From Escherichia coli (GTDB taxonomy: Bacteria; Pseudomonadota; Gammaproteobacteria; Enterobacterales; Enterobacteriaceae): a DNA stretch of 64,000 bases. Location: NCBI RefSeq assembly GCF_001677475.2, contig NZ_CP015229.1; one strand, 5' to 3'. Position 1 is the stretch's first letter. Every line of letters starts with the position of its first letter. Positions 12,387 through 31,927 of the stretch are shown piece after piece. The translations under genes and the position numbers were made by a program. Under the pieces are notes generated by a model. It was given only the letters and a program-made list of their open reading frames with translations. It was not told the origin of the DNA and did not search any database.

Positions 12387-13373
12387 ATGAAGATGAGGTC
12401 ATTTACCCGCTCATTAGTCTGCGCATCCTTGCTGGCTCTGGTTAGCACTGGCGTAAACGCCGCAGAAAAAGTGACGTTAAAGTTAGCACACAACCTGGAA
12501 AGAAGTCATGTTGTACATCAGAGTTTTGAAGAGCTGGCGAAAGAGGTAAAACAGCTGTCAAAAGGTAATATGGTGATCCGTATTTATCCCAGCAGCCAGA
12601 TGGGTAATGCGCGAGAAACTATGGAATTGTTGCAAAATGGCGCACTGGATATGACCAAAGGTTCCGCCAGTGATCTGGAGTCTTTTGATAATATTTATGC
12701 TATCTATAATTTGCCGTTCTTATTTAAAGATCAGGCGCACTTCAACAAAGTTGTTTTTGGTGAAGTTGGTAAAGAAATTATGGACTCTACAAAAGATAAA
12801 GGCTTTTTTTCTTTATCAGCTTATGTAGCGGGTACTCGCAGTTTCTATGCGAAAAAACCGATTACTAAGCCAGCAGATCTTAAAAGACTGAAAATTCGTG
12901 TTCAGCCAAGTCCGACCACCATCAAAATGATTGAACTGATGGGTGGTTCACCCACTCCAATTTCATTTGGCGAAGTTTATACTGCGATGCAGCAAGGTGT
13001 AGTAGATGGCGCAGAAAATAACGTGCCTTCCTGGGTGCAGACTCGACATATTGAAATTGCCACAGTCTTTTCTGAAGATGAACACGCCTCAATTCCTGAC
13101 TTTTTGGTTATCTCCACCAAAACATGGAATAAATTAACCCCAGAACAGCAACAAATCCTCGAAACAGCGGCGAAGAAATCCGAAGCTTATCAACAAAAAT
13201 TGTGGGAAAAAATTGACGCTGACACACGTGCTCAGGCGAAAGCTATGGGTGGTGAAATCGTTAAGGTTGATAAAGCCCCATTCCGTGCCGCAGTTCAACC
13301 TCTGTTTGACGACTTCAAAAAAGATCCAAAACAAGCTGCTTTGTTAGAGAAATTCGACAACGCTGCTCAATAA
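12387..13373 (+). CDS. TRAP transporter substrate-binding protein (DctP family)
   Basis: 328 aa with signal peptide; DctP-like periplasmic SBP; followed by small and large TRAP permease genes. Confidence 0.8.
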   Translation: MKMRSFTRSLVCASLLALVSTGVNAAEKVTLKLAHNLERSHVVHQSFEELAKEVKQLSKGNMVIRIYPSSQMGNARETMELLQNGALDMTKGSASDLESFDNIYAIYNLPFLFKDQAHFNKVVFGEVGKEIMDSTKDKGFFSLSAYVAGTRSFYAKKPITKPADLKRLKIRVQPSPTTIKMIELMGGSPTPISFGEVYTAMQQGVVDGAENNVPSWVQTRHIEIATVFSEDEHASIPDFLVISTKTWNKLTPEQQQILETAAKKSEAYQQKLWEKIDADTRAQAKAMGGEIVKVDKAPFRAAVQPLFDDFKKDPKQAALLEKFDNAAQ

Positions 13374-13377
13374 TATT

Positions 13378-13405
13378 TCGGGCCAGTCTCTGGCCCTGAT
13401 TTTCC
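13378..13405 (+). terminator. intra-operon hairpin/attenuator between the TRAP SBP and permease genes
   Basis: GGGCCAG-TCTC-TGGCCC followed by a T-run, just before the dctQ-like start. Confidence 0.45.
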
Positions 13406-13408
13406 AGG

Positions 13409-13921
13409 ATGCTTACAATGATATTTAACCGCCTGAAACTTGCGGTAGACCGCGTCATTGCCGCGTTTTCTGTCGCCGTAATGCTTGCTCTGGTTGTATG
13501 CGTAGTCTGGCAAGTATTTAGCCGCTACGTACTTAACCAGCCAAGTACATTAACCGATGAGCTGGCACGCTTTTTGATGATCTGGGTAGGATTATTAGGT
13601 GCTGCATATACCGTCGGCGCGCAGAGACATCTCTCTATCGATTTATTTGCTCTCGCCCTGAATAAGCGCAAGCAATTACTTCTTAGTATAGTCATTAACG
13701 TTCTTATTTTAGGTTTTGCCGGTTCGGTCATTGTGACTGGTGGCCTGAAATTAATTGATAAAACACTGGCAACATCACAGGTATCTGCCGCGATGCAAAT
13801 ACCGATGGGATACGTATATATCATTCTGCCATTAAGTGGATTGGTGATGATGTTTTATGCCTTGTGTTTTATTAATCAAAGCATTCAACAACTGAAACAA
13901 CCTGCGCAGGAGGCCAGTTAA
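13409..13921 (+). CDS. TRAP transporter small permease (DctQ family)
   Basis: 170 aa, four hydrophobic segments; position between the SBP and the large permease. Confidence 0.7.
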   Translation: MLTMIFNRLKLAVDRVIAAFSVAVMLALVVCVVWQVFSRYVLNQPSTLTDELARFLMIWVGLLGAAYTVGAQRHLSIDLFALALNKRKQLLLSIVINVLILGFAGSVIVTGGLKLIDKTLATSQVSAAMQIPMGYVYIILPLSGLVMMFYALCFINQSIQQLKQPAQEAS

Positions 13922-14507
13922 TGGATAGTTATATCGCGCTTACACTGTTTGGCTGTTTTTTTGTGCTGGTCTTTATTGGTGTGCCCATTTCGTTCTCAAT
14001 CGGTATTGCCACTGTAGCTTCAATGCTGTTGATGTTTCCCTGGGATATCGCGGCAATCACTGTTTCGCAGCGACTGGCTAATGGACTGGATAACTTTGCC
14101 CTATTGGCAATCCCCTTTTTCATCTTTGCCGGAACGCTGATGAACAGCGGCGGTATTGCGATACGTTTGATTAACCTCGCCCAGGTAATGGTTGGCCGCG
14201 TTCCTGGTTCGCTTGGTCATGTGAACGTCCTGGCGAATATGATGTTTGGTTCCATTTCTGGTTCAGCCGTTGCGGCAGCTGCTGCCGTTGGTGGCACACT
14301 GAATCCCATTCAGACCAAAGAAGGTTATGATCCGGCATTTTCTACCGCTGTAAACGTCTCATCCTGTATTACTGGATTACTGATACCGCCCTCAAACGTG
14401 TTAATTGTGTTTTCCCTGACAGCTGGCGGCGTTTCTGTAGCATCGCTATTTATGGCGGGATATTTGCCAGGGATCTTAATGGGTCTCGCGGTAATGGTTG
14501 TCTGCGC
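13921..14507 (+). pseudogene. TRAP large permease (DctM family), N-terminal fragment truncated by IS66
   Basis: 196-aa hydrophobic ORF whose stop codon is created by the IS66 end; the C-terminal continuation is found at 45325-46046 on the minus strand. Confidence 0.75.
14501..14507. repeat. 7-bp direct repeat TCTGCGC (target duplication of the IS66 insertion in dctM, left copy)
   Basis: Same 7 bp found in reverse complement at 46040-46046, abutting the other IS66 copy. Confidence 0.6.
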
Positions 14508-14592
14508 GTAAGCGTAAACCGACCGCCGTATGTAGCCATTAGACAAGAATTGGTAACTTAGACGCCCATCTGACACAGACGGACATCTAAGT

Positions 14593-15012
14593 ATGGAATT
14601 ACAGGACTGGCGAAAAGAACCTCGTAAAAAGTATTCGAATGAATTCAAACTTCGTATGGTTGAACTGGCATCACAACCCGGTGCTTGTGTGGCTCAGATT
14701 GCACGAGAAAATGGCGTCAATGATAATGTTATTTTCAAATGGCTCAGACTCTGGCAAAACGAAGGGCGTATATCACGGCGTCTTCCGGTGACAACCACTT
14801 CTGATGCAGGCCTTGAATTATTACCTGTAGAGATAACCTCTGATGAGCCGAAAGAACCGATGGCTGCTCTTACTCCGCCCTTATCCACTCAGACTACTGT
14901 CAGTGCCAGCTCCTGCAAGGTGGAGTTCCGTCACGGTAACATGACGCTGGAAAATCCTTCACCAGAGCTGCTCACTGTATTGATTCGTGAACTGACCGGG
15001 AGGGGAAGATGA
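14593..15012 (+). CDS. IS66 family accessory protein (orfA/TnpA)
   Basis: 139 aa with HTH-like N-terminus; first gene of the IS66 triad. Confidence 0.85.
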   Translation: MELQDWRKEPRKKYSNEFKLRMVELASQPGACVAQIARENGVNDNVIFKWLRLWQNEGRISRRLPVTTTSDAGLELLPVEITSDEPKEPMAALTPPLSTQTTVSASSCKVEFRHGNMTLENPSPELLTVLIRELTGRGR

Positions 15013-15359
15013 TCTCACTCCCATCCGGTACCCGTATCTGGCTCGTTGCCGGGATAACCGATATGCGTAAGTCTTTCAACGGGCTGGGTGAACAGGTACA
15101 GCATGTGTTAAATGTTAATCCCTTCTCCGGTCACCTGTTTATCTTCCGTGGCCGACGGGGTGACACCGTTAAAATTCTTTGGGCTGATGCTGATGGTCTG
15201 TGCCTGTTCACCAAACGCCTGGAGGAAGGCCAGTTTATCTGGCCTGCGGTGCGTGACGGTAAGGTATCCATTACCCGCTCGCAACTGGCAATGCTCCTCG
15301 ATAAGCTGGACTGGCGTCAGCCAAAAACATCCCGCCTTAACGCCCTGACAATGTTGTAA
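15009..15359 (+). CDS. IS66 family accessory protein (orfB/TnpB)
   Basis: 116 aa; ATGA overlap with orfA. Confidence 0.85.
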   Translation: MISLPSGTRIWLVAGITDMRKSFNGLGEQVQHVLNVNPFSGHLFIFRGRRGDTVKILWADADGLCLFTKRLEEGQFIWPAVRDGKVSITRSQLAMLLDKLDWRQPKTSRLNALTML

Positions 15360-15389
15360 AAAACGCCTGGCCGCATTATAAAAACGGCC

Positions 15390-16982
15390 ATGAGTCAGAA
15401 ATACCTCATTCGCATTGCAGAACTGGAAAGCCAGCTCCGTCAGAAAGACCAGCAACTGAGTCTGGTTGAAGAGACGGAGGCCTTCCTGCGCTCTGCACTG
15501 GCACGTGCCGAAGAAAAGATCGAAGAAGATGAACGGGAAATAGAACATCTGCGGGCTCAGATAGAAAAACTGCGCCGGATGCTGTTCGGTACCCGTTCTG
15601 AAAAACTGCGTCGTGAAGTTGAACAGGCTGAGGCCCTGCTGAAACAACGCGAACAGGACAGCGATCGTTACAGTGGGCGGGAAGACGATCCACAGGTTCC
15701 CCGCCAGTTGCGACAGTCGCGCCATCGTCGTCCGTTACCGGCACACCTTCCCCGTGAAATACACCGTCTGGAGTCTGAAGAAAGTTGTTGCCCGGAATGT
15801 GGCGGCGAGCTGGATTATCTGGGGGAAGTCAGTACTGAGCAGCTGGAACTGGTGAGCAGCGCCCTGAAAGTGATCCGCACAGAACGGGTAAAAAAAGCCT
15901 GTACAAAATGTGACTGCATCATTGAAGCACCGGCGCCGTCCCGCCCGATAGAGCGTGGTATCGCGGGCCCCGGATTACTTGCCCGCGTGTTAACGGGAAA
16001 ATACTGCGAACACCTGCCACTGTATCGTCAGAGTGAAATCTTTGCCCGACAGGGTGTCGAACTGAGCCGTGCATTACTCTCCAACTGGGTTGACGCGTGC
16101 TGCCAGTTAATGATGCCGCTGAATGATGCCCTGTACCGTTATGTGATGAATACCCGCAAGCTTCACACTGACGACACACCGGTAAAGGTACTGGCACCGG
16201 GCTTGAAAAAGACGAAAACAGGGCGCATCTGGACGTATGTCCGGGATGATCGCAATGCGGGTTCGTCATCTCCTCCGGCGGTCTGGTTCGCGTACTCACC
16301 GAACCGGCAGGGGAAACACCCGGAGCAACACCTCCGCCCCTTCCGGGGTATCCTGCAGGCGGATGCGTTCACAGGTTATGACAGGCTGTTCAGTGCAGAA
16401 CGTGAAGGTGGTGCGCTGACAGAAGTTGCGTGCTGGGCCCATGCCCGGAGAAAAATCCACGATGTATACATCAGCAGCAAAAGTGCGACGGCAGAAGAAG
16501 CCCTGAAGCGAATCAGTGAACTGTACGCCATCGAGGATGAAATACGGGGATTACCAGAGTCAGAGCGTCTTGCAGTCAGACAGCAGCGAAGCAAAGCGTT
16601 ACTGACGTCGCTGCATGAATGGATGGTGGAGAAGAATGGCACGCTGTCGAAAAAATCCAGACTGGGCGAAGCGTTCAGCTATGTACTGAATCAGTGGGAC
16701 GCCCTCTGTTATTACAGTGATGACGGACTGGCGGAGACGGACAATAACACAGCGGAAAGAGCGCTTCGTGCAGTCTGTCTTGGAAAGAAAAATTACGTGT
16801 TCTTCGGTAGCGATCACGGTGGCGAGCGTGGTGCACTGCTATACGGGCTGATCGGCACCTGCCGTCTGAACGGTATCGATCCGGAAGCGTATCTGCGCCA
16901 TATTCTGAGCGTACTGCCGGAATGGCCCTCCAACCGTGTTGACGAACTCCTGCCATGGAACGTGGTTCTCACCAATAAATAA
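15390..16982 (+). CDS. IS66 family transposase (TnpC)
   Basis: 530 aa with N-terminal coiled coil/leucine zipper, CxxC zinc-finger motifs and DDE-type core. Confidence 0.9.
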   Translation: MSQKYLIRIAELESQLRQKDQQLSLVEETEAFLRSALARAEEKIEEDEREIEHLRAQIEKLRRMLFGTRSEKLRREVEQAEALLKQREQDSDRYSGREDDPQVPRQLRQSRHRRPLPAHLPREIHRLESEESCCPECGGELDYLGEVSTEQLELVSSALKVIRTERVKKACTKCDCIIEAPAPSRPIERGIAGPGLLARVLTGKYCEHLPLYRQSEIFARQGVELSRALLSNWVDACCQLMMPLNDALYRYVMNTRKLHTDDTPVKVLAPGLKKTKTGRIWTYVRDDRNAGSSSPPAVWFAYSPNRQGKHPEQHLRPFRGILQADAFTGYDRLFSAEREGGALTEVACWAHARRKIHDVYISSKSATAEEALKRISELYAIEDEIRGLPESERLAVRQQRSKALLTSLHEWMVEKNGTLSKKSRLGEAFSYVLNQWDALCYYSDDGLAETDNNTAERALRAVCLGKKNYVFFGSDHGGERGALLYGLIGTCRLNGIDPEAYLRHILSVLPEWPSNRVDELLPWNVVLTNK

Positions 16983-17012
16983 GCGTCAATACGGTGCTCC
17001 GTTGACGCTTAC

Positions 17013-17020
17013 GGCCAGCG
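17013..17020. repeat. 8-bp target-site duplication GGCCAGCG of the IS66 insertion in IS629 (one copy)
   Basis: Identical 8 bp (as CGCTGGCC) abuts the other IS66 copy at 48552-48559. Confidence 0.8.
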
Positions 17021-17624
17021 ATACATACTGAGAACCTTTATCACTGTGATGGATTGTGCCGGACGGCCGACGGGCCCACAACGCCTGCTCCAGTGCATCC
17101 AGCACGAATGTTGTTTCCATGGATGATGAGACCTGCCATCCCACGATGTATCCGGCGAACACATCAATGATGAACGCCACATAAACGAAGCCCTGCCATG
17201 TGCTTACCCAGGTAAAATCAGCCACCCACAACTGGTCTGGACGTTCTGCCACGAACTGACGGTTTACGCGGTCGCATGCGGCAACGGCTTTCCGGCTGAC
17301 GGTAGTGCGGACCTTTTTACCCCGGAGAACACCGGCAAGTCCCATAACTGCCATGAGACGTGCCACAGTGCATCTGGCCACTCTGATACCTTCCCGTAAC
17401 AACTGACGCCAGACTTTACGCACACCGTATACCTGGTGATTTTCATCGTATACGCGCTGTATCTCTTTCTTCAGCCAGTCATCGTGCTGCGCACGGGCAC
17501 TGCGTTTATCCGGATGATGTCGCTGTTGCTGACAATGGTAATACGTTGACGGGGCAATATGCAGTTCGCTGCATACCGGTCCGACCCCGTACTGCTCACG
17601 CAGCTTATCCAGCAGTGGCATCAT
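17013..17624 (-). pseudogene. IS629 transposase orfB, N-terminal fragment interrupted by IS66
   Basis: IS3-family OrfB sequence ...HHSDKGSQYVSLA ends at the IS66 junction; the remainder YTQRLKEAG... is at 48560-48838. Confidence 0.8.
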
Positions 17625-17947
17625 TTTTTCCAGAGGCGGTCGAACTCCGCCTTCGCAAAATAAGCGGAAGCCTGGCGAAGGATATCGTTACTGCGGCGCA
17701 GTTCACGATTTTCACGTTCCAGCTCTTTCAGACGCTGACGTTCAGCGCTGGTGAGCCCACCATCACCGCCCCCGGTATCCCGCTCATGCTGGCGAACCCA
17801 GACACGCAGAGTCTCCGGCGTACAGCCAATCTTTGGGGCAATGGAACAAATTGCCGCCCACTGTGAGTCATATTCATCCTGACTTTCCAGAACCATACGA
17901 ATCGCCCGCTGACGGACTTCGGGGGAAAAACGAGTATTTTTAGTCAT
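17621..17947 (-). CDS. IS629 orfA (IS3 family transposase N-terminal protein)
   Basis: 108 aa, [22 protein letters not shown]... with leucine zipper; overlaps orfB in the -1 frame as in IS3 family. Confidence 0.85.
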
Positions 17948-18001
17948 CCTGTTTACCTCTTTCTCAGGGAGTTTAGTCTCCAGGATTTCCGGGGCGGTTC
18001 A

Positions 18002-18550
18002 GAGCAGCAACTCAGGGCGCTGCTGACACCCTCACCGGATGTGCTTTCAGCAGACCAGATGATGCAGCTCAGCAGAACACTGTTAAATCATGCGTCAGAG
18101 TGGATAACCCTTTCCGGTCAGCAGATAACGCGACTGACAGAATTCCCCCCGGCATACAACCTGCAACGCAGTGTGCAATTGCTGCAGCAACTGATGGTAC
18201 TTTTCCCCGACAATCCTCGTGTTCAGGAAATGGTGGATAACTGGCAGAAGAGTGCAAGGAGTCGTGCGCTCCCGGAAGAGGCGATGACTGGCTGGAACGA
18301 AGGCATGACCCGCTTACAGCTGTTGGCTGAGCGCCTGAACCGTCCAGATGAACAGCGGGGAAAATACATGACGGTCAGTGAGCTGAAAACGGAGGTGTCT
18401 GGCATCATGCAGGCTTTTAACCGGCATATCCTGGCAGAAGAACAGTTGTGTCACTATGGTGAAGTCCGCAACCAGAATGGAAGCGAGCAGCAGCAAAAAC
18501 AAATGAAAGATGCATTTGTTAAGCTGATTCATTTTTACTGTTTTATATAA
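18002..18550 (+). pseudogene. C-terminal part of a TssA/ImpA-like gene separated from its N-terminal part by IS629 and the inversion
   Basis: Reading frame is open from the IS629 end at 18002 and continues the frame that ends ...PAE at 48881 on the other IS629 flank. Confidence 0.4.
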
Positions 18551-18603
18551 AGCCTTTAGGATGTGGGGTAAGGGGAGTGTTGCAATTTATTCGGTGAGAT
18601 AGT

Positions 18604-19311
18604 TTGTTTGTGGAGTGTTTAAGCGCTTTTGGATGTTCGTCTGTTGTTTCGAATAGTATGGTGAATATGAATGGTAAATATAATGTCAGGAGTGAATTGT
18701 TAGCTCGTTGTATCGGAACTGGTAGATTGAAAGGAGATGTGAGAAGTGATTTTATTGGGTTTAATGGTAGTAAACAGGTAGGTTATGTTTTATTAACTTT
18801 ATTCTTAACGAAAGTAACAAATTCTGATTTGCTCTCTCATTATCGTATATTTAATCGTTTTTTGCATTATGAGAGAAAAGTTATGGACATATATAATTCT
18901 TTGAGTGATATAGAAGTTGATTGTATTTGCCAGGAAGTGATGGCTATATATGAACATACTCAGCGATGCTGCAACGAAAAGAAAATCACAACTATCCAGT
19001 TAGGCAGGAAACTTAATGGCAGGTATGCAGATACGATTGCTGAGTTAAAAGAAACAGCAGAGATAAGAGGGGAGGATGTGATTTCTTTTGAGATGGATAT
19101 ATTGAATTCTTTTAATGATGCGGATGAATATCACGGACGTGTTAAACTGGAGTTGGATATACCTGCTTCAGATATATTATATTGCCATGATTTTATTGAT
19201 TCAAAACATGTAAACTCCTGGTTGGTTGAACCACATGAGTGGGTGGTTATAAATCGTTCTCTCAATGGGATTGTTACAGTGCCAGTATCATCAATAAAGA
19301 TTCTTTATTGA
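18604..19311 (+). CDS. hypothetical protein (AT-rich island gene)
   Basis: 235-codon ORF in a markedly AT-rich segment; true start may be internal; no recognisable motif. Confidence 0.35.
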   Translation: MFVECLSAFGCSSVVSNSMVNMNGKYNVRSELLARCIGTGRLKGDVRSDFIGFNGSKQVGYVLLTLFLTKVTNSDLLSHYRIFNRFLHYERKVMDIYNSLSDIEVDCICQEVMAIYEHTQRCCNEKKITTIQLGRKLNGRYADTIAELKETAEIRGEDVISFEMDILNSFNDADEYHGRVKLELDIPASDILYCHDFIDSKHVNSWLVEPHEWVVINRSLNGIVTVPVSSIKILY

Positions 19312-19451
19312 TAAATATGTTTGTAATATGTTTTATATGTTCATCAGGATGAAAGTAAGCAATTTTAGTAGTGGCTAATTAAACGTCATTTAATGTTTGT
19401 TGCTATATGTTGAAAGCATAAACAGGTTTCTTTTGCATAAAGTAAAAATAA

Positions 19452-20684
19452 ATGAATGATAATTTTTTAACGGAGAAAGTCCTTACTGGAGAGAATGTTC
19501 TGCGTGCAGCAATTGCTCGTATTGAGTGGATTTTTGAAACATTTCCATCAGTTTGTCTCTCTTTTTCCGGTGGTAAAGATTCCACCGTGCTTTTCCATCT
19601 TGTGGCTGATGTGGCCCGCAGGAAAAGACGTCGTTTCTCTGTACTGTTCATTGACTGGGAGGCTCAGTACCAGTGCACCATTGAACATATTCAGAAGATG
19701 CGGGAAATGTACTATGATGTGACGGAAACCTTTTACTGGGTGGCGCTTCCCCTGACCACGGTAAACGGTGTCTCGCAGTTTCAACCGGAGTGGATATGCT
19801 GGGAGCCTCGTGTGACCTGGGTTCGCCAGCCACCGGAAGAGGCCATTACGGATATGGCGTATTTTCCCTTTTACCGGTATGCCATGGCGTTTGAAGAATT
19901 TGTTCCGGCATTTTCTTCCTGGTTTGCTGGCAACCGGTGTGGAGTGGCAGTGCTGACCGGTGTCCGGGCGGATGAATCCCTCAACCGCTTTATGGGACTG
20001 GTGTCCCAGCGCAAACTGAGATATGCCAATGATAAGCCTTGGACCACGGCATCGCCTGAAGGGTTTTACTACACTATGTATCCGCTGTATGACTGGAAAA
20101 CTCGTGATATCTGGATATATCACACCAGAACCCGTGCCATCTACAATCCCCTGTATGATCTGATGTACCGTGCCGGCGTACCGTTACGCAACATGCGTGT
20201 CTGTGAACCTTTTGGTCCTGAACAACGTAAGGGACTGTGGCTTTACCATGTTCTGGAACCGGAAACCTGGGCCAGGATGTGTGAGCGGGTGTCAGGGGCT
20301 GCCAGCGGGGCACTTTATGCCAATGAAAGCGGGGCTTATTTTGCCCTGCGTAAGCGCATATCAAAACCAGCCCATCATACCTGGCGCAGCTATGCGATGT
20401 TTCTGCTGGATGTGATGCCGGAAAGAACGGCAGAACATTACCGCAACAAGATAGCTGTCTATCTGCGCTGGTATCAGACGCGGGGCTTCCCGGATGACAT
20501 CCCGGATGAACAGGAGAATGACCTGGGGAGCCGGGATATTCCGTCCTGGCGACGTATCTGTAAGACTCTCATAAAGAATGATTTCTGGTGCCGTACCCTC
20601 TCCTTCAGTCCGAACAAACCCCGGCACTATGAACGTTATCTGCAGCGTATGAAAGAAAGGAGGAAGGAATGGGGGATTCTGTGA
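19452..20684 (+). CDS. ibrA: PAPS-reductase-like protein, IbrA-like (co-activator of prophage gene expression)
   Basis: 410 aa with SGGKDS PP-loop motif near the N-terminus; partnered with a ParB-like gene as in the described ibrAB pair. Confidence 0.75.
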   Translation: MNDNFLTEKVLTGENVLRAAIARIEWIFETFPSVCLSFSGGKDSTVLFHLVADVARRKRRRFSVLFIDWEAQYQCTIEHIQKMREMYYDVTETFYWVALPLTTVNGVSQFQPEWICWEPRVTWVRQPPEEAITDMAYFPFYRYAMAFEEFVPAFSSWFAGNRCGVAVLTGVRADESLNRFMGLVSQRKLRYANDKPWTTASPEGFYYTMYPLYDWKTRDIWIYHTRTRAIYNPLYDLMYRAGVPLRNMRVCEPFGPEQRKGLWLYHVLEPETWARMCERVSGAASGALYANESGAYFALRKRISKPAHHTWRSYAMFLLDVMPERTAEHYRNKIAVYLRWYQTRGFPDDIPDEQENDLGSRDIPSWRRICKTLIKNDFWCRTLSFSPNKPRHYERYLQRMKERRKEWGIL

Positions 20685-21307
20685 CACCGGAGATACTGAG
20701 CAACATGATTCGTCAGTACTTCAGCCAGGAACGACCAGAAGAAGAGGCCATACAGGCCCTGAATCATCTGCGCAGGGTGCTTCATGAGGTCAGTCCATTT
20801 GCACAGGAGCCTGTGGACTGTGTGCTGTGGGTGAAAGCAGATGAGGTGGTGGCCAACGATTATAACCCCAATGTCATGGCGCCGGGTGAGAAGAAACTGC
20901 TGAAACATTCACTGGAGCAGGATGGGTTCACGCAGCCTGTGGTTGTCTCGGAAGAGAAGGAGCATTATCTGGTCGTGGATGGTTTTCATCGTCAATTACT
21001 GGGCAGGGAAGCAGGTACGGGAAAACGCCTGAAGGGCTGGTTGCCAGTGACCTGTATTAATCCGGAAAGAAAGGGACAGGCCTCACGTATTGCTGCAACC
21101 ATTAGACATAACCGGGCCAGGGGGAAGCACCAGATAACTTCAATGTCTGATATTGTCAGGGACCTGTCGCGGCTGGGCTGGACGGATGAACGTATTGGTA
21201 CGGAGCTGGGTATGGACCAGGATGAAGTTCTCAGGTTGAAACAGATTAGCGGGCTGACGGAGCTGTTTCTGGAAGAGGATTTCAGTCCGGCATGGACGGT
21301 TCGCTGA
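20669..21307 (+). CDS. ibrB: ParB-like nuclease domain protein, IbrB-like
   Basis: 212 aa; overlaps the ibrA 3' end by 16 nt; ParB/Srx-type N-terminal region. Confidence 0.7.
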   Translation: MGDSVTPEILSNMIRQYFSQERPEEEAIQALNHLRRVLHEVSPFAQEPVDCVLWVKADEVVANDYNPNVMAPGEKKLLKHSLEQDGFTQPVVVSEEKEHYLVVDGFHRQLLGREAGTGKRLKGWLPVTCINPERKGQASRIAATIRHNRARGKHQITSMSDIVRDLSRLGWTDERIGTELGMDQDEVLRLKQISGLTELFLEEDFSPAWTVR

Positions 21308-21346
21308 GACCGTCATATATGTATATTATTTCAGTGAGTTAATGTT

Positions 21347-21655
21347 TTGAGCAGGAAAAAGAGTACCCCGGAAGTCGTGGAAGACATGGTTGCACAGAAG
21401 CTGGAGGCTGCGGGTTGCTGGCGCAGAGCTTCCGCCCGCTGGCTTTTTGTTATGGGAAATGTTGAATGTACAGAAGCACAACGGGAGTGGTTGTTGTTGC
21501 GCAGGAATTATTGCCTGGCGCAGATATCGTCCCCGCCGCTACCTGAAAAGCTGGATATCAGCGAAGTGGCGAAAGCTGCAGATGCCACGCTGAGGCGAAT
21601 GGGGATTGCCAGTCCGTCCGGGGAGGTATTCAGAAAAGGTACACCGGTCTGTTGA
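21347..21655 (+). CDS. hypothetical small protein (weak resemblance to PerC-family activators)
   Basis: 102 aa; LEAAGCWRRASARW segment resembles PerC/Pch-type proteins as I recall them; not verified. Confidence 0.35.
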   Translation: MSRKKSTPEVVEDMVAQKLEAAGCWRRASARWLFVMGNVECTEAQREWLLLRRNYCLAQISSPPLPEKLDISEVAKAADATLRRMGIASPSGEVFRKGTPVC

Positions 21656-21675
21656 TATTCAGGTAACAGGTATTA

Positions 21676-22320
21676 ATGATAAAGAAAGGAATGGCAAACA
21701 GTATATCAATGACATGGCAACTTTTATGCGATGATCATGGTTTTACCCGGGAGCACTACAATCAGCTGAAGAAATTCAGCCCGGAGGCATTACGTGAAAT
21801 TATTGCTGAAATAGCCTGCTGCCATCCGTCAACCAGTATATTGCTCAGGAATAAGTGGCTGACACCGCCGGAGGATATTCCGGAGCAGGTTACCCGTGAA
21901 TACGAACGAAGAATACAGAACTGTCCATCTTTCAGGAGCGAGAAAGAGGCGGAATCCTGGCTAAATGAACTGTTTTTTGCTGTGATTGCGCCGCTATACC
22001 GGGTTGTCCCCGGACAATCAGAACAGGTTGAATCCTTTGTTCTGCAGCTTATTGCCGAACAGGAGCGGGTTTGGGAGCTTATTCTAACCAATGATGGTTA
22101 TTCATGGCATTGCGCACTTTATGATATATTATTTCATCTGGTTTTACGAAATATGGAAGACCAGCCTGAACATCAGAGACAGCGAATAACAAAAATACTT
22201 AATGAGTCCGATACAAGGCGGGTTGCAGAAGAGATTAAATTCCGGATTCAATATCTTCAGGATGAAGAACAAAAGAGAGTTTTAAGTGAGTTGGTAAATG
22301 TCCTGATTTCAAAAAGATAA
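21676..22320 (+). CDS. hypothetical protein
   Basis: 214-codon ORF co-directional with ibrAB; no recognisable motifs. Confidence 0.4.
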   Translation: MIKKGMANSISMTWQLLCDDHGFTREHYNQLKKFSPEALREIIAEIACCHPSTSILLRNKWLTPPEDIPEQVTREYERRIQNCPSFRSEKEAESWLNELFFAVIAPLYRVVPGQSEQVESFVLQLIAEQERVWELILTNDGYSWHCALYDILFHLVLRNMEDQPEHQRQRITKILNESDTRRVAEEIKFRIQYLQDEEQKRVLSELVNVLISKR

Positions 22321-22384
22321 AACATGTCGGAGTAATTTTTCTATATATTAAAAAAACAGGTTCGTATTACCATAAAGGAGATCG

Positions 22385-22708
22385 GTGAGTAACCGTTATT
22401 GGATGATCTCCTTCCATAAAAATACGCGCAATCTAACGGTTTGCTCTGTGCCAAAAAAAGACATTGCTCACAATATCGAGTTAATCATTCGGCCGTTGAA
22501 CATTCCCATTGAAAAATTTCTCAGTATAGAATATACCAATGTTGAGGGCATTCCTCTTACATCTCGAAGGATAACTATCATGGGTCTAAAACCAGGTCCA
22601 AAACCAATTGCTAAGTCAACAGGAAAACCGGATCAACGCCGACGCGATAATAAAGATACTCCTGGCAATACTCCGGGATTAAAGCCAAGTAAGTCCACAG
22701 GTAAGTAA
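22385..22708 (+). CDS. hypothetical protein
   Basis: 107-codon ORF with a Pro/Lys/Gly-rich C-terminus; convergent with the helicase gene. Confidence 0.3.
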   Translation: MSNRYWMISFHKNTRNLTVCSVPKKDIAHNIELIIRPLNIPIEKFLSIEYTNVEGIPLTSRRITIMGLKPGPKPIAKSTGKPDQRRRDNKDTPGNTPGLKPSKSTGK

Positions 22709-22755
22709 AAAATAAGGGTATAAATACTTATTTATACCCTGACTACATATCCAGT

Positions 22756-24954
22756 CTACTGAAGGTGTTTCTGCAGCCAGATGCACGTTCCTTTTATATC
22801 ATACGCCTGTGCCCCATACCCTTTAGCAAGCAAAGTCTCTGGTAAATACTCGTCATATTTATCCAGATACTTGTCGGGAACAACTGCAGCAAGCTCAAAC
22901 TCTGAAGGTAGCCCCGACAATAGCATTTTCTTAAGTGCACGCTGGACAGAGGCAACGCCTGAGTCCTCTACCTCTATCACACCTGCAAATGAACTGGCTT
23001 TAAAGCCACAACGTATAATCAGGGACGTAATTGTATTGACAATTTTATCCCCCATCCACGGGATCACGTAGCAGTTCTGACCACTGGCAATAAAACAGTC
23101 ATTTTGTAGATTGTAGCGTTGGAAGTTGTCACTTCCTTCCGCGAAGAGGCTTCTGGCTGCGGCATCAGCATAATCGACTCTCTTGTTGCCTACCGCGATA
23201 CGGTAATCATTTTCCCTGTAGATAGTGAGCATTTCCTGGCGAACAACATCATGAACAGACATCCCGGTACCACTGAATAGTGGCGGCTGACCGCCTTTAG
23301 TCGTCTCAACATAGATAACCTTTTTTTCAACCTCGATCTCTGTCACTTTCCAGCGCCGTCCGCCGAAGATGATGTGCTGCTCCGGCAAAAGTGGGGAGTC
23401 TACAGGCACTGTGCCAAGAGTTCGGTTTCCCGTTACAATGCGAAACTCCTCAGGTGTATTGAATACGGCATAAAACGTGTAGTGATTAGTCAGCTTCTCC
23501 CCCTCAGCCCCGACAACTATTTCACCGCTGGTTAGTTGAGTGAGCAGGCCACATGTCCCCATATGTTTAAGCAGACTTTTGAAGTCATTTATATCCACAT
23601 TCCGGAACGGACCTGTCTGGCAAAGTTGTGACCAGAGCTGATCGGCACGAACACCTCCCCATTGCGCAGTAATAGCCAGGATCTGGTGTAGTAGTGTGGA
23701 GTAATGTTTCTGCCGGATATCTGCAGGCTCGAACCAGCGCTTAGAGATCATCAACCTGATCATTGCCATCGCCTGAACCAACTGCAGCCGTAAATGATCC
23801 ACAATGCTGCTGGTTGCGGTAAGTTCAGGTTCAGTAATTAACATTCTCAGCACCGATGGGGAATCGCGCCGCCCTGAACGTCCCATGCGTTGACGCAGAC
23901 TGGAAACAGAATGCGGAGGTGTCACTTGTATGACAGACTGCACCTTACCAATATCAATACCCAGCTCCAGCGTCATTGTACAAACAGCGGTTGTGGGCAA
24001 ATTCCCTTTCTGCAGTCGGGCTTCAAGCGCCTCACGCAACTCCCTTGCAAGGGAACCATGATGAGGAAAGAATTCATTAGGAACGACATTTGCTTCACAC
24101 ATGTCGCTCAGTGTTGCCGCTATGCTTTCAGTACGCTTTCGACTGTTAGCAAAGACCAGGTGGGAATCGCCACGGCAGAGCCTGAAAATATCCGCGCAGA
24201 CGAGCTGTTCAGCAGAGCTCTGGAGCTCTTCTCCTTTTTCGGGCACCCGCTCAAGATAACCTTTAACCTGAACCTGTAGTGTGGCTTTGCTATTACTGTC
24301 TGTTACCGTTTCACAAGGTAATCTCTTATCCGGGCGCAATAGTTCTGGTACTTTTTCCAGCTCTCCCAGCGTGGCACTCAACGCGACACGGGGAACTGGA
24401 TTCAACTGGCGTCCCAGCACATGGTCAATTCTGTTAAGCAGAGAAAGCAGCTGTATACCACGCTCTGAGCCAATAAAAGCATGGAACTCATCAATAACAA
24501 TGTATGCCACAGAAGAAAACGCCTGTTTGAGCCAACCCAATGAGTTTATGAGCAAAGACTCAAGTGATTCAGGTGTGATAAGTAAGATGCCAGAAGGGGT
24601 TGTCCGTGCTTTCTTCTTTTTGCTTTGTGGTACATCCCCGTGCCAGGGCGTCACTTGCATTTCCAGGGCTTCACCAAGACTCTCAAGACGACGGTGTTGA
24701 TCGTTAATTAATGCCTTCAATGGACTGATATAGATAATGCCAAATCCACCAGTGAGATCTGCAATCGCTGAACAGGCAGGAAGAAAGAAAGCCTCTGTTT
24801 TACCCGCAGCTGTACCTGCACTAATTAGTACATCACGATCACGGGCTAAAATTGCCGGAATAGAGCTTTCCTGCAAGGGCCTTAAGGATGACCAGCCCTG
24901 CTTATAAACCCACTTACGGACACGGGGATCAAGACTATTGTAGGCACTACTCAT
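22756..24954 (-). CDS. SF2 DExH-box helicase (Lhr-like), third gene of a candidate defence operon (SngC-like)
   Basis: 732 aa with motif I AGTAAGKT, motif II DEFH, motif III SAT, motif VI QRMGRSGRR; ATGA start/stop overlap with the upstream ATPase gene. Confidence 0.8.
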   Translation of the reverse strand: MSSAYNSLDPRVRKWVYKQGWSSLRPLQESSIPAILARDRDVLISAGTAAGKTEAFFLPACSAIADLTGGFGIIYISPLKALINDQHRRLESLGEALEMQVTPWHGDVPQSKKKKARTTPSGILLITPESLESLLINSLGWLKQAFSSVAYIVIDEFHAFIGSERGIQLLSLLNRIDHVLGRQLNPVPRVALSATLGELEKVPELLRPDKRLPCETVTDSNSKATLQVQVKGYLERVPEKGEELQSSAEQLVCADIFRLCRGDSHLVFANSRKRTESIAATLSDMCEANVVPNEFFPHHGSLARELREALEARLQKGNLPTTAVCTMTLELGIDIGKVQSVIQVTPPHSVSSLRQRMGRSGRRDSPSVLRMLITEPELTATSSIVDHLRLQLVQAMAMIRLMISKRWFEPADIRQKHYSTLLHQILAITAQWGGVRADQLWSQLCQTGPFRNVDINDFKSLLKHMGTCGLLTQLTSGEIVVGAEGEKLTNHYTFYAVFNTPEEFRIVTGNRTLGTVPVDSPLLPEQHIIFGGRRWKVTEIEVEKKVIYVETTKGGQPPLFSGTGMSVHDVVRQEMLTIYRENDYRIAVGNKRVDYADAAARSLFAEGSDNFQRYNLQNDCFIASGQNCYVIPWMGDKIVNTITSLIIRCGFKASSFAGVIEVEDSGVASVQRALKKMLLSGLPSEFELAAVVPDKYLDKYDEYLPETLLAKGYGAQAYDIKGTCIWLQKHLQ

Positions 24955-26267
24955 AATCTGAAATTCGCCAGGCCATCATCGTCATCACTTTCCTCCACAA
25001 TGGCATCATCCATATCGCTGAGCTTGTCTTCTTCAATCGCCACCCCCTCAATGAGGGTTTGCCAGTTCATCGTTCTGTTTTGTTCCAGCACAGCCAGCAT
25101 ATCCAGAAAACCTTTTATGGTATTGCGGGGAGTTCGAAAGTAAGCATCTCCGATGGTTTTGCTGCAGTGATGCAGAAACCCGGTCAGAGCATCATCTGGC
25201 ACCAGATAATTTGCGGGATCTCCACCAGCATAAACATGACGAAGGTTTTTCAGTAAAATATACAGTTCCTCAGGAGTGAGGCTGGCAAGATGCAGCGTGG
25301 GGGACGAGTAGTCAATCACGCCAGCTTTCTGTGCGAATCGGTTTTCTGCCAGACGCGACTGGAGCGCTTCATAGCTGTAGAGCCCCTTACGTGGATCGAA
25401 AAGAAATTCTGGCGTCCCCCCGAGGATAAAACCAATATTTTCGGCGGAGCCTTGCAGGCAGTCATTCAGGATCCGCAAAATTTGTTCGTAGTTGGCCGTT
25501 CTCGCTTGCGTATTATTCAACTTGAAGAGGTTCACCATCTCGTCGAGGCTAACTAAAAGTCCGGCATAGCCTGCCTGACGGACAAAAAGGCTCATCAACT
25601 TCAAAGAATCATAGAACGAGGCGTCTGAGATAATCGTTCGGACGTCAAGATCATTACGGGCATCAGTTTTTGTGGTGTACTCGCCCCGCAACCAGCGAAT
25701 AGCATTGGATTTTAAGGTTTCGTTATCCTGCTCATGCCCGCGCCAGAATGCGTCAATGACCTTCGCAAAGTCATATCCTCCCACCATATCTGACAAAGCA
25801 GCAAGGCGTTTATGAATAACGGATGAGACCAGGGAGCCGTTCGCATCAGCTTCCTTCCTTGCCTCAGTAACAAACCTTTCCACAACGCTAAGTAATGCAT
25901 TGCCATCTGGTTTGTTTCTGGTGGACATATTTTTCATAAGCTCTGAGTAGAGATTACGAGCCTGACCTCCCGATGAGTGGATACGTCTGTCGGGAGAAAG
26001 GTCTGCACTGACCGTGACCAGCTTCTTCTCTAACGCAATAGACCGTACAACACTTAAAAAGAATGTTTTCCCGGAACCGTACTCACCAATGATAAGTCTG
26101 AAGCTTGCCCCGCCATCAGCAATCCGTTCAATATCCTGATGGAGGGCGGTTATCTCATTCACGCGGCCAACCTGGATATGCTGAATACCTATTCTTGGCG
26201 TTACTCCCGACTTAAGTGACTGAATGATAGCGTCGCGCTCTTTCACTCTTATACGTGTTACAGACAT
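24951..26267 (-). CDS. P-loop ATPase, second gene of the candidate defence operon (SngB-like)
   Basis: 438 aa with Walker A GEYGSGKT and Walker B-like LLVSLDEM; acidic C-terminus. Confidence 0.8.
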   Translation of the reverse strand: MSVTRIRVKERDAIIQSLKSGVTPRIGIQHIQVGRVNEITALHQDIERIADGGASFRLIIGEYGSGKTFFLSVVRSIALEKKLVTVSADLSPDRRIHSSGGQARNLYSELMKNMSTRNKPDGNALLSVVERFVTEARKEADANGSLVSSVIHKRLAALSDMVGGYDFAKVIDAFWRGHEQDNETLKSNAIRWLRGEYTTKTDARNDLDVRTIISDASFYDSLKLMSLFVRQAGYAGLLVSLDEMVNLFKLNNTQARTANYEQILRILNDCLQGSAENIGFILGGTPEFLFDPRKGLYSYEALQSRLAENRFAQKAGVIDYSSPTLHLASLTPEELYILLKNLRHVYAGGDPANYLVPDDALTGFLHHCSKTIGDAYFRTPRNTIKGFLDMLAVLEQNRTMNWQTLIEGVAIEEDKLSDMDDAIVEESDDDDGLANFRL

Positions 26268-26270
26268 TCA

Positions 26271-28580
26271 CTAACCCTCTAATTCTTTGGCTATTTCCAG
26301 GTCAATCCAAATGTGATCATCAGCATCTTCCAGCACTGGTGCATCAACCACCGCATAGGACCAATCGTTAATCACCTCAAGCGCACCGCCGAGCATCAGG
26401 TTCCAGTTACTACACAACTCTGTCGCCTCTTTTCTGGACCATTGTTCTTTCTCCAGCAACCTGCGATAAAGTTGGCTATGAGCGGAGTCAAGTCCCCCTT
26501 CCCCGGTTAATGAGGCTGGAGCGCTTTCTGGTTGTTCTGGTTCTTCTTCAGTGAAAATTGAGTTCAGTAATTTACGAACATCATCAGTGGCAGATTCGTG
26601 GCGGGCAAGTACGTTGGCATCCAGCGTAAACCCTGCCGTCGACTGATTAGCTGGTACAGATGAAACGAGAGCAGTTTCAGTTGCGGAATGCTGATGGATA
26701 TTGCTTGATACGGATGAGGGATCCAGTCCCAGGCTTGTATAAATCTTCTCAAGCTGTTTGATTTCGGCAGGCGTAATTCTGCCGTCAGAGCAAGCGACAC
26801 TAACGATAACCTTACCCACAGCTGATTTTTCCGCTGCACCGAGTAATTCAATCCGGCTTTTCATTCCCGTCATATTCGCCGGAGTATGAAGCTGCCACGT
26901 TAAATATGCGTGCAGAGAGCGCTTTTCATCATCGCTGAAGCTGGCATTGTTGTTGATGGCATTCTCAAGCACTTTCTGTTCGGCTTGATCGAGAGAATTG
27001 TCAATCAAGGCGACTACCGAACCTAATCGGAGCGTCAATACAGCTGTGATAAATTCAGGAGAAGGTGAGAAACGTCCTCTTTCACCAGCAGGGAATAAAA
27101 CAAGTACACCATCGACATCTGCCTTTACGTGGTGGTGATAGGGGTCAGGAGCCAGACAGTATCCCATTTTCTGTGCAAAGGCTTGCATTAAGTCGGCCTC
27201 TTTTTTATTGATCTTCGCCGGACAGGTGGCATTCATATGTGACCAGTAGTCAGCAACTGAAACTATCCCACCCTTACTGCGGATTGCGTCATCAGCCCAG
27301 TGTTTGAATGTACTTAATATTTTTTCTGCGCTTTCGTTAACGATTTCTGAAGGCAGCAACAAAATTGCAGCGGTATCATTTGCTGAAGTACCTTTTCTAC
27401 CAAGGTAACGACTGTAAGCATCCAGTTCACCTGTGCATATATCGGCAATGGCCATAAGCTTCTGAACAGGGCCTTTCAATGCACCTGGATCAGGCAAGTC
27501 GGGAACAGGAAGCCGAATACCTCGCAAACTGGGACTTGCAGGCGTGTAATCTAAACGCAGACGCGCTTTATTCGGCTTCACTACCATCCCTTCACCGTAT
27601 TTAAGGGTGTAACGCCGTTTAAATAGTGCAGCAAATTCTTTCGCACAGCGGCGGGCGGGGGTTCGTAATGAGTATTCAGCATGGTTTGTCACCCACGTCA
27701 GAGCCAGATCCGCTGGAACCGGGGCTCCTGTATCAACAGTCTTTGCCAGGATTAACCTGAACTGCATGCTATTGCTGAACTCCGAATCATCGTTGAGAGC
27801 TGCTGCAAGATTTTCGTTCGGACGAAGAATGGACATCGCTTCAAGTAACTGGGATGAGTAATTCCGGAAAGATCGGTTTTCATTGAAAACCGATCTGAGA
27901 CGGCAGATCTCTTTGAAAAGAGAATAGAACTCATCGTCGGATATATTGTTGTCCCTGCTGTCAACAAGCGCCCTTCTTTCCAGACCATACAGATAAATGA
28001 AAACGTAACCAATTGGGCAGGAAGTGTCGCATCTGTCGCTGGCAAGCCAACTCAGGTACGCACCACGAGCTTCAGGTGAAAGTGAGGAAAAACTGGGCCA
28101 ATACCCTAATGAACTATCTTCGTAAATGTAAGGTGTGGGGGATATTTTAAGCGTGTCGTCAACTAGCGATGCCTCGTTATTGCCATCATAATAACCGCCT
28201 GAGTTATGCCCGGCAGGTTTCATACGCTGCCCAAGATAGAAGTGACCGCCGGTAACCTCTATCCCACTGACTGTGATCATCTCTCCCGGAAAAATCCAAC
28301 GAGCCAAAGCACCGGTAGTTTTTGAGAAATTCTGGCGTTGAGTGGCTGTTATGCTGTATTCGACATTCCGCCCGCCACTTAGTGTAAACGTAGCCAGATT
28401 GTCATCTTCGCTGTCCTCGTTTTGCATTACAGACTGATTTTTTTTGTTGTTAGCAAGCCATTCTTTAGGTGGTGCTTTCACAGGAGCGGAAGTATAAGAG
28501 CCCGCGGACTTAGTTTTCTTCTTTTTGAAAAAAAGAATATAAATCAAATAAATAGCTACTATAAATATCCATAACTCCAT
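26271..28580 (-). CDS. large N-terminally membrane-anchored protein, first gene of the candidate defence operon (SngA-like; TerB domain not verified)
   Basis: 769 aa; N-terminal hydrophobic helix MELWIFIVAIYLIYILFF followed by KKKK; 3-nt spacing to the ATPase gene. Confidence 0.7.
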   Translation of the reverse strand: MELWIFIVAIYLIYILFFKKKKTKSAGSYTSAPVKAPPKEWLANNKKNQSVMQNEDSEDDNLATFTLSGGRNVEYSITATQRQNFSKTTGALARWIFPGEMITVSGIEVTGGHFYLGQRMKPAGHNSGGYYDGNNEASLVDDTLKISPTPYIYEDSSLGYWPSFSSLSPEARGAYLSWLASDRCDTSCPIGYVFIYLYGLERRALVDSRDNNISDDEFYSLFKEICRLRSVFNENRSFRNYSSQLLEAMSILRPNENLAAALNDDSEFSNSMQFRLILAKTVDTGAPVPADLALTWVTNHAEYSLRTPARRCAKEFAALFKRRYTLKYGEGMVVKPNKARLRLDYTPASPSLRGIRLPVPDLPDPGALKGPVQKLMAIADICTGELDAYSRYLGRKGTSANDTAAILLLPSEIVNESAEKILSTFKHWADDAIRSKGGIVSVADYWSHMNATCPAKINKKEADLMQAFAQKMGYCLAPDPYHHHVKADVDGVLVLFPAGERGRFSPSPEFITAVLTLRLGSVVALIDNSLDQAEQKVLENAINNNASFSDDEKRSLHAYLTWQLHTPANMTGMKSRIELLGAAEKSAVGKVIVSVACSDGRITPAEIKQLEKIYTSLGLDPSSVSSNIHQHSATETALVSSVPANQSTAGFTLDANVLARHESATDDVRKLLNSIFTEEEPEQPESAPASLTGEGGLDSAHSQLYRRLLEKEQWSRKEATELCSNWNLMLGGALEVINDWSYAVVDAPVLEDADDHIWIDLEIAKELEG

Positions 28581-28809
28581 GAGGCAGTAACCTTAAAAAT
28601 AGCTTTTCACGCACACCAAAAAGGATGACGATGGGAAGTGGATTAATCTCAAAATAATACTTCTAAATTAAAAAGGTTAAAAGCAAATCACAACCTTCCT
28701 GAGCTTCCGCTTTTCTCTTTCAGAGGGCTGAAGTCGTTATCTGTAACCAGAGGAGATCAGTAGCCCGTTATGCCAGCTAAAGCACTCCGGGCAGATTGCC
28801 CGGAGTGCT

Positions 28810-28990
28810 TAATATTTTAATGGATTGTTAATCTTCGCATACTCAAAGGGGCTGGTATTTTCTTTCGAGTTTGTATCCAGAAAATCCCCCCACCACTGTA
28901 GCATCAACCGACGCTATTCCAGGTGTTCTGTTTTATGGATATAAGCCGCCCTTAATGAATTACGTTCCATGTGGCTCATCTGACGTTCAG
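28810..28990 (-). pseudogene. remnant of the 3' end of a second P4-type integrase gene
   Basis: ~180 bp closely similar to the 3' end of the intact integrase gene at 31928 (encodes ...AKINNPLK-like C-terminus); same flanking hairpin CCGGGCA...TGCCCGG. Confidence 0.6.
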
Positions 28991-29208
28991 CCGCTTTATC
29001 TCGTGCTGTTTTGGTCTTAATACTTCCATGCCGCTGCGATTACCTCTTAAACCCGCCCTTACCATTTTTATGGGTACGATAAGAAAACTTTATCGGGCAC
29101 GATCGATTTTATCGATCGATTCGATCGAAAACATTCCTTTTACCCTATCTTTTGCATGGTTTTAGAATGAGCAACCCCATTTATCGTTCGGGGAAAGTGA
29201 TAGCGGAG

Positions 29209-29958
29209 ATGATTGAAATGAATAAGGTTATTGCGGTTTCAGCGCTTGCCATGGCAGGCATGTTTTCGACCCAGGCTCTGGCTGATGAGAGCAAAACAGG
29301 CTTTTATGTGACCGGTAAAGCAGGTGCTTCTGTTATGTCACTTGCAGACGAGCGTTTCCTGTCGGGTGATGGAGAGGAAACATCAAAATATAAAGGCGGT
29401 GATGGCCATGATACGGTATTCAGTGGCGGTATCGCGGCCGGTTATGATTTTTACCCGCAGTTCAGTATTCCGGTTCGTACGGAACTGGAGTTTTACGCTC
29501 GTGGAAAAGCTGATTCGAAGTATAACGTAGATAAAGACAGCTGGTCAGGCGGTTACTGGCGTGATGACCTGAAGAATGAGGTGTCAGTCAACACACTGAT
29601 GCTGAATGCGTACTATGACTTCCGGAATGACAGTGCATTCACACCATGGGTATCTGCAGGGATTGGCTACGCCAGAATTCACCAGAAAACAACCGGTATC
29701 AGTACCTGGGATTATGGGTACGGAAGCAGTGGTCGCGAATCGTTGTCACGTTCAGGCTCTGCTGACAACTTCGCATGGAGCCTTGGCGCGGGTGTCCGCT
29801 ATGACGTAACCCCGGATATCGCTCTGGACCTCAGCTATCGCTATCTTGATGCAGGTGACAGCAGTGTGAGTTACAAGGACGAGTGGGGCGATAAATATAA
29901 ATCAGAAGTTGATGTTAAAAGTCATGACATCATGCTTGGTGTGACTTATAACTTCTGA
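29209..29958 (+). CDS. putative outer-membrane beta-barrel protein
   Basis: Signal peptide (…AMAGMFSTQALA), alternating beta-strand-like pattern, C-terminal ...LGVTYNF with terminal Phe. Confidence 0.55.
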   Translation: MIEMNKVIAVSALAMAGMFSTQALADESKTGFYVTGKAGASVMSLADERFLSGDGEETSKYKGGDGHDTVFSGGIAAGYDFYPQFSIPVRTELEFYARGKADSKYNVDKDSWSGGYWRDDLKNEVSVNTLMLNAYYDFRNDSAFTPWVSAGIGYARIHQKTTGISTWDYGYGSSGRESLSRSGSADNFAWSLGAGVRYDVTPDIALDLSYRYLDAGDSSVSYKDEWGDKYKSEVDVKSHDIMLGVTYNF

Positions 29959-30109
29959 CAAAACTGCTCCTGAAAGATAATAATTACCCATCTTCTGTAA
30001 TTAAACGAAGACTCCCTGCAGTAATTATACTGCAGGGTTGTTTGTTATCTGTTTCACAGGAGACTTCTGATTTTTATTCTCTTCACAATAATGTTGTCGA
30101 TATACTCCG

Positions 30110-31609: not shown

Positions 31610-31927
31610 TCATATATGGCAAACTGTAATACAGTTGCTTGTACTGAAAAGTATTCTGTATAAAACAGAATCCGTATTCATATCAGCACAAGGGACCACC
31701 AAATCCCGGCAGTATTCCTTACGTCAGTTATCCCGCATCACTCTGTGAGTGAGTTTTTTTATGAGGTTACTTTTTCATTGAATATAAATAATGAATAACC
31801 GCAGATTCTGATAATCCTCCTCCAGGGAACAATCAGGTAAACAGTAAATACATCAGTTAATACCATTTTGTCTTTTTAACAAAGAAAATATTCATGGAGT
31901 AAGTTCCCGGGCATTTGCCCGGGATGA

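Follow-up and report, generated by a model that had tools for sequence, protein, structure and literature searches.

An accessory TRAP transporter gene, dctM, is split in two in an Escherichia coli strain, very probably by an IS66-family insertion and an inversion bounded by two IS66 copies

Introduction

In TRAP transporters, the M subunit carries the path for substrate and ion, and the binding protein alone transports nothing. A locus in which the genes for a binding protein and a small permease are followed by a large-permease gene that breaks off at an insertion sequence (IS) thus raises the question of whether the transporter can still be made and of how its gene came apart. Such a locus lies in the 64-kb stretch of E. 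coli DNA analysed here as a whole, which we call the window. The original prediction held that dctP and dctQ are intact, that dctM is cut by an IS66 element after ~196 codons, and that its remaining ~240 codons lie far away on the other strand and are in frame once the IS66 and an inversion are removed. We examined both fragments, their flanks and their counterparts in relatives, the comparison set being 5426 complete E. coli genomes.

Results

An intact dctP–dctQ pair precedes a truncated dctM

The TRAP genes occupy the following positions.

12387-13373, plus strand: dctP, TRAP substrate-binding protein, intact, 328 aa, with a signal peptide-like N-terminus
13409-13921, plus strand: dctQ, TRAP small permease, intact, 170 aa from the first ATG or 167 aa from the PGAP start at 13418
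13921-14507, plus strand: dctM 5′ fragment, codons 1-195 plus 2 nt, with a Pfam DctM match
45325-46046, minus strand: dctM 3′ fragment, consisting of a 7-bp duplicate (46040-46046), 1 nt, 237 codons and the stop

The dctP product matches Pfam DctP over positions 2-285 of 286 (E = 6.5e-82) and TIGR00787 with 275.8 bits (cutoff 175), and the dctQ product matches Pfam DctQ over positions 1-129 of 132 (E = 3.5e-30). Both genes equal their E. coli orthologues in length, from which they differ by 6 and 2 amino acids, respectively. The prediction that these two genes are intact is thus borne out by full length, agreement with the orthologues and end-to-end matches to the family models. dctP, dctQ and the 5′ end of dctM share a strand, with the stop of dctQ and the start of dctM overlapping as ATGA.

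The ORF of the 5′ fragment (13921-14511) starts with ATG and encodes a 196-aa product that matches Pfam DctM over positions 1-186 of 413 (E = 2.2e-52). Native dctM sequence stops at 14507; from 14508 onward the sequence, beginning GTAAGCGTAAACCGACC, is the left end of the IS, whose bases supply the TAA at 14509-14511 (GC|G TAA). The C-terminal part of DctM is read on the minus strand from 46046 to 45325, immediately past GTTGACGCTTAC, where a second IS66 copy has its right end. In a tblastn search with the rejoined protein, the 3′ fragment was matched by residues 193-433 at 99.2% identity. Both pieces lie exactly at the coordinates first given for them, with the junctions read in the sequence, and the predicted codon counts were fair approximations of 195 2/3 codons and 238 1/3 unique codons, the latter including the stop.

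Both fragments derive from a single gene

The fragments measure 587 nt and 722 nt. When they are joined and 7 bp (TCTGCGC) is removed, they form a reading frame of 1302 nt that encodes 433 aa and has a single terminal stop. Removal of 0 or 8 bp instead left 8 or 25 stops, so that, of these lengths, only 7 bp works. The forecast that the frame is restored by taking out the IS66 and the inversion is therefore correct as far as it goes; it left unmentioned the 7-bp duplication, which must go too. The rebuilt gene, checked against the DctM family, matches PF06808 over positions 1-413 of 413 with 405 bits (cutoff 23.8) and TIGR00786 over positions 1-405 of 405 with 471.6 bits (cutoff 268.45), both at full length. 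Residues 14-430 align with the solved M subunit 7QHA_B, which places the break mid-protein.

Two separate pieces of a permease could in principle come from two different TRAP permease genes, that is, from paralogues that were never one gene. However, the rejoined dctM aligns over positions 1-1302, in one piece and at 98-99% identity, with E. coli genes annotated as 'TRAP transporter large permease', so that both fragments match a single gene, where they meet at the same 7 bp and overlap by exactly that length. The joined ORF also has the length of the orthologue (433 aa), with 4 amino acid differences, and the window's DctM, at 295 bits where the equivalog cutoff is 800, is distinct from its paralogue YiaN. 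Nothing was found in favour of an origin from two genes, which retains practically no probability and which we regard as refuted; the fragments are the two parts of one gene, as the original prediction had assumed.

The interrupting element is a complete IS66-family IS present in two identical copies

The IS that abuts the 5′ fragment, and its second copy, have the following features.

14508-17012, plus strand: IS66 copy A, 2505 bp, with imperfect terminal inverted repeats GTAAGCG...CGCTTAC
14593-15012, 15009-15359 and 15390-16982: tnpA, tnpB and tnpC of copy A
46047-48551, minus strand: IS66 copy B, 2505 bp, inverted relative to copy A
14501-14507, plus strand: left copy of the 7-bp target duplication TCTGCGC at the dctM site, whose right copy is at 46040-46046

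There are 0 mismatches between copies A and B in 2505 bp. The encoded proteins have the domains PF01527 HTH_Tnp_1 (tnpA), PF05717 TnpB_IS66 (tnpB) and, in tnpC, zf-IS66, LZ, PF03050 DDE_Tnp_IS66 and a C-terminal element. The NCBIfam models NF033517 (transpos_IS66) and NF033819 (IS66_TnpB) were matched with 447.6 bits (cutoff 180) and 119.4 bits (cutoff 50), respectively. At the termini, 19 of the first 26 positions are complementary. Since the 2505-bp unit stands as a discrete element, at 99.6-100% identity, in other E. coli chromosomes and plasmids, the ends of the element are fixed. The element named in the prediction is thus indeed an IS66, complete with tnpA, tnpB and tnpC; PGAP labels it 'IS66 family' only.

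The target duplication is 7 bp (TCTGCGC) in dctM, as against 8 bp (GGCCAGCG) at the other insertion site, which lies in an IS629-like element (see below). Elsewhere, 8-bp duplications flank all three intact copies of the 2505-bp IS that we checked (CATGATAT, AGTCAGTG and TTTTTGAT). The 7-bp duplication in dctM is the sole mildly unusual detail of the locus.

Copy A has the orientation of dctPQ and starts directly past the truncated dctM. Because it is co-oriented and lies immediately 3′ of the dctM stub, the promoter of the TRAP operon could conceivably read into tnpA.

The segment between the IS66 copies is inverted

Between the two IS66 copies and at their outer flanks, the window is arranged as follows.

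17013-46046: inverted segment, 29,034 bp between the IS66 copies, identified by its reverse match to E. coli AHM8C212RI and by colinearity with E. coli TW10573
17013-18001, minus strand: left part of an IS3-family (IS629-like) element, the first part of the inverted segment, with orfA at 17621-17947 and the 5′ part of orfB at 16986/17013-17624
17013-17020: 8-bp duplication GGCCAGCG, left side
18002-31906: DNA of the pheV island; together with the IS629-like left part, the island's share of the inverted segment is ~15 kb
Rest of the inverted segment, in order: int, tRNA-Phe (33391-33466, minus strand), yqgA, speC, nupG, mltC, yggX, mutY, trmB, yggL, yggN, ansB, yggM and the dctM 3′ fragment
48552-48880, plus strand: right part of the IS3-family (IS629-like) element, with the 3′ part of orfB and the right inverted repeat
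48552-48559, in minus-strand reading: 8-bp duplication GGCCAGCG, right side

Copy A is flanked by TCTGCGC on its left and by GGCCAGCG on its right; copy B, in its own orientation, is flanked by GGCCAGCG on its left and by TCTGCGC on its right. When 17013-18001 (minus strand) and 48552-48880 (plus strand) are joined with 8 bp removed, they form a 1310-bp element with ends TGAACCGCCCCGG...CCGGGGCGGTTCA and with orfB in frame. This rejoined element aligns unbroken and at 99.8% identity with annotated IS3-family elements that have a frameshift pseudoknot; its proteins appear similar to those of IS629/IS1203. Outside the element, the island DNA that starts at 18002 and that which starts at 48882 fall on neighbouring positions of TW10573 (15001/15002), in opposite orientations.

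Comparison with AHM8C212RI gave the same picture from the other side of the segment. Colinearity of window 7770-14507 with this reference extends to reference position 20587, and window 31907-46046 is the reverse of reference 34728 to 20581 (dctM-yggM-ansB...pheV-int). Each alignment stops precisely at an IS end, and the two share 7 bp, reference 20581-20587. Flipping 17013-46046 thus rejoins three independent pairs of sequences. Since the outer flanks rejoin as an IS629-like element and the island is contiguous in TW10573, we conclude that the 29 kb lying between the IS66 copies have been inverted. The predicted inversion is accordingly real in the sequence, with the order of the reference reversed in it, and the 3′ 55% of dctM now lies 31.5 kb off on the opposite strand.

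How the insertion and the inversion may have arisen

We consider it very probable that this accessory dctM was killed by insertion of an IS66 element together with an inversion bounded by two IS66 copies. The order and the route of these events are reconstructed rather than observed, and we picture them as follows. A 2505-bp IS66-family element would have entered dctM at codon 196 and generated the 7-bp target duplication. A second, identical copy would have come to lie in inverted orientation in the IS629-like element of the pheV island, ~29 kb off; the two insertions may have occurred in either order. Homologous recombination between the inverted copies would then have flipped the intervening segment. 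The dctM 5′ fragment can encode only residues 1-195 of 433 and is closed by an IS-supplied stop. Relative to its orthologue, dctM has 4 amino acid differences in 16 nucleotide differences, as compared with 6 in 24 for dctP and 2 in 12 for dctQ. Because the IS66 copies are identical and dctM has no excess of amino acid changes over dctP and dctQ, the events look recent.

The same arrangement could also have been produced in one step, if a single IS66 in one of the two sites, dctM or the IS629-like element, underwent intramolecular replicative transposition into the other and thereby created both the second, inverted copy and the inversion. The flank pattern of such a replicative inversion follows from established transposition topology, and the pattern it predicts (x-IS-t and t-IS-x) is exactly the one observed. 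The identity of the two copies at all 2505 positions also fits this route, as does the finding that no intermediate, whether with one insertion or with both but without the inversion, occurs among the 5426 complete E. coli genomes, in which neither junction was found. The one-step and two-step routes leave the same flank pattern, however, so that the flank data fit both. Moreover, inversions through homologous recombination between inverted IS copies are very common in Escherichia and Shigella genomes and require no special assumption, whereas replicative transposition of IS66-family elements is, to our knowledge, not established, the transposition mode of IS66 being unsettled. We therefore think the one-step route unlikely, and we are somewhat more doubtful still of its fuller version, in which one-step replicative transposition made both the inversion and the second IS66 copy and the 7-bp duplication is the trace of an unusual strand transfer. 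If the one-step route were true, the locus would provide natural-history evidence on how IS66 transposes.

A further reading accepts that dctM is interrupted by IS66 but takes the inversion for an assembly artefact, or for one of two interconverting isomers, the other having dctM-5′::IS66::dctM-3′ in place. At both ends of the inverted segment lie identical 2.5-kb repeats in inverted orientation, too long for short reads to cross, so that the orientation of the segment hinges on how good the assembly is; NJSK01000012.1 (see below), the related draft contig read here, breaks inside the IS and is silent on orientation. The window, however, runs through its 64 kb without a break, its junctions are clean and its duplications reciprocal, and it bears no sign of a mis-join; a mis-join would alter the orientation only, leaving dctM disrupted either way. 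We judge this reading improbable and retain two IS66 insertions followed by homologous recombination as the preferred account.

An intact dctPQM locus is present in a minority of E. coli genomes

One check that accompanied the original prediction was whether relatives carry an intact dctPQM between hemW and yggM. They do: in AHM8C212RI (NZ_CP104613.1), the gene order is hemW-dctP-dctQ-dctM-yggM(-)-ansB(-), with the TRAP genes annotated as N5856_RS17890-17900. This locus has the same neighbours and gene lengths as that of the window, at 97.6-98.8% nucleotide identity (matches of 963/987 for dctP, 492/504 for dctQ and 1286/1302 for dctM; amino acid differences of 6, 2 and 4, respectively). The difference is that dctM is intact in AHM8C212RI, whereas that of the window is split by IS66 and has its 3′ part inverted 31.5 kb off. 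dctM was found in 1470 of the 5426 complete E. coli genomes (27%), contiguously in 1460, with a best identity of 98.8%. TW10573, compared with window 12074-14507, is without dctPQM, and its hemW directly adjoins yggM. Thus, dctPQM between hemW and yggM is an accessory locus with a presence/absence polymorphism in E. coli. In UTME-12, the same dctM gene carries an independent IS1 insertion.

The dctM::IS66 junction was found in none of the 5426 complete E. coli genomes at a query coverage of at least 80%, nor in an exact-match scan of the GTDB species-representative genomes, and searches for the IS66/IS629-like junction in the 5426 genomes yielded only two-piece coincidences of nearby IS fragments. 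The truncated 196-aa ORF is present on 8 public draft contigs; the one of these that we read, NJSK01000012.1 (GCA_002516285.1), matches the window at 100% identity along 10.6 kb before breaking off 62 bp into the IS. A literature search on the hemW-yggM TRAP locus and on assembly GCA_002516285.1 found no papers.

For window 7770-13400 (core genes yggR to dctP), identity with the 5426 complete E. coli genomes does not exceed 97.5%, and all 5424 best matches fall within the 95-99% band. Because this backbone reaches no higher identity, the strain seems to come from a divergent lineage of Escherichia without a representative in the collection.

The most likely substrate is a hexuronate

The best PDB matches of DctP are 4N15/4N17, 4LN5, 4OVR, 4MHF/4MIJ, 4X8R, 4N8Y, 4N91 and 4XFE. 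Hexuronate-binding proteins among them, notably 4N15, 4OVR and 4MHF, are matched with E values of 6e-66 to 2e-57, a moderate similarity. Of these structures, 4MHF (Bpro_3107) is a binder of D-glucuronate and D-galacturonate, 4N91 (Apre_1383) is a D-glucuronate binder, and 4N15 (Bamb_6123) has served as the template for the Salmonella D-glucuronate binder STM3169, whose ligand contacts are R150, R170 and N210 (PMC7660916). R151, R171 and N211 of the window's DctP align with these three residues. Given the closest solved relatives and the conserved Arg/Arg/Asn, a hexuronate is our best guess, and by homology of DctP the substrate would most likely be D-glucuronate and/or D-galacturonate.

Predicted loss of the transporter

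No single uninterrupted dctM ORF encodes the whole membrane subunit at this locus, and dctM is a pseudogene: we assign it as a DctM-family pseudogene because its ORF ends at 14511, after 196 codons, with the rest of the gene on the opposite strand at 45325-46046. Within the 64-kb window, tblastn identified no second DctM homologue, only the two fragments. Since residues 196-433 are lost and under half of the translocating subunit is left, the TRAP transporter is predicted to be non-functional. The transporter would then be dead, with dctP and dctQ left behind as intact orphans.

The strain is predicted to have lost, probably, high-affinity, binding-protein-dependent uptake of hexuronate. A further hexuronate carrier, ExuT, is normally present in E. 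coli. We do not expect a strong phenotype, because ExuT is usual in E. coli and 73% of the complete genomes are without the TRAP locus.

Other genes in the window

Apart from the TRAP locus, the window contains several further gene groups. The inverted pheV island includes a complete Shango anti-phage system, identified with PADLOC models, at 22756-28580 on the minus strand.

22756-24954, minus strand: SngC helicase, 923 bits (PADLOC)
24951-26267, minus strand: SngB ATPase, 620 bits (PADLOC)
26271-28580, minus strand: SngA TerB-domain protein, 332 bits (PADLOC)

At 19452-21307 (plus strand), the island has a gene pair that, by the annotation of a near-identical E. coli island, encodes a PAPS-reductase-like and an IbrB-like protein (IbrA/IbrB type); the first of the two proteins has a weak PADLOC match to BrxP only. 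A gene for a PerC-family regulator follows this pair. Beyond the IS629-like element, 50076-51863 (minus strand) encodes a 595-aa helicase/nuclease-like protein, whose counterpart in TW10573 is annotated as a 3′-5′ exonuclease, and 52056-53300 (minus strand) encodes a 414-aa coiled-coil protein with a C-terminal part that appears nuclease-like by eye (putative). From ~54420 to 64000 extends an F4 (K88)-like chaperone-usher fimbrial operon (faeD, faeE, faeH and faeJ-like), which runs off the end of the window and is 91-94% identical to its closest E. coli copies.

Discussion

Pseudogenisation by an IS together with an inversion is an ordinary kind of event, and the finding matters little past the annotation of this strain. 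There, dctM should be annotated as one pseudogene in two pieces instead of two short 'permease' ORFs, and the 31.5-kb stretch that reaches from dctM to the pheV island should be entered as inverted, with IS66 copies as its boundaries. The dctM::IS66 and IS66/IS629-like junctions, absent from the 5426 complete genomes while the truncated ORF occurs on 8 draft contigs, could in addition mark a lineage.

The interrupting IS agrees with three-ORF IS66 sequences (such as IS679 or ISEc8-like ones) in the domains of tnpA, tnpB and tnpC, in its GTAAGCG termini and in the 8-bp duplication at the IS629-like site, but those sequences differ from the insertion in dctM, where the duplication is 7 bp. As for the transporter itself, the M subunits or domains of the SiaQM sialic-acid TRAP permeases (7QHA, 7QE5 and 8THI) match the rejoined DctM over its whole length (E = 2e-91 to 4e-83), although these systems have another cognate binding protein and another substrate than the one predicted here. 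Measured against 7QHA_B, only the counterpart of the first ~187 residues can be encoded as DctM in this strain. YiaMNO, the 2,3-diketo-L-gulonate TRAP transporter of E. coli K-12, is of the same class as the system of the window but is a paralogue: identification of DctM with YiaN was rejected at 295.5 bits against the NF011634 equivalog cutoff of 800, and that of DctQ with YiaM at 38 bits against a cutoff of 260. On the side of the binding protein, Bamb_6123 (4N15/4N17), Bpro_3107 (4MHF/4MIJ), Apre_1383 (4N91) and STM3169 resemble the window's DctP in their Arg/Arg/Asn triad, whereas the STM3169-3171 locus has a genomic location unlike that of dctPQM in the window (PMC7660916).
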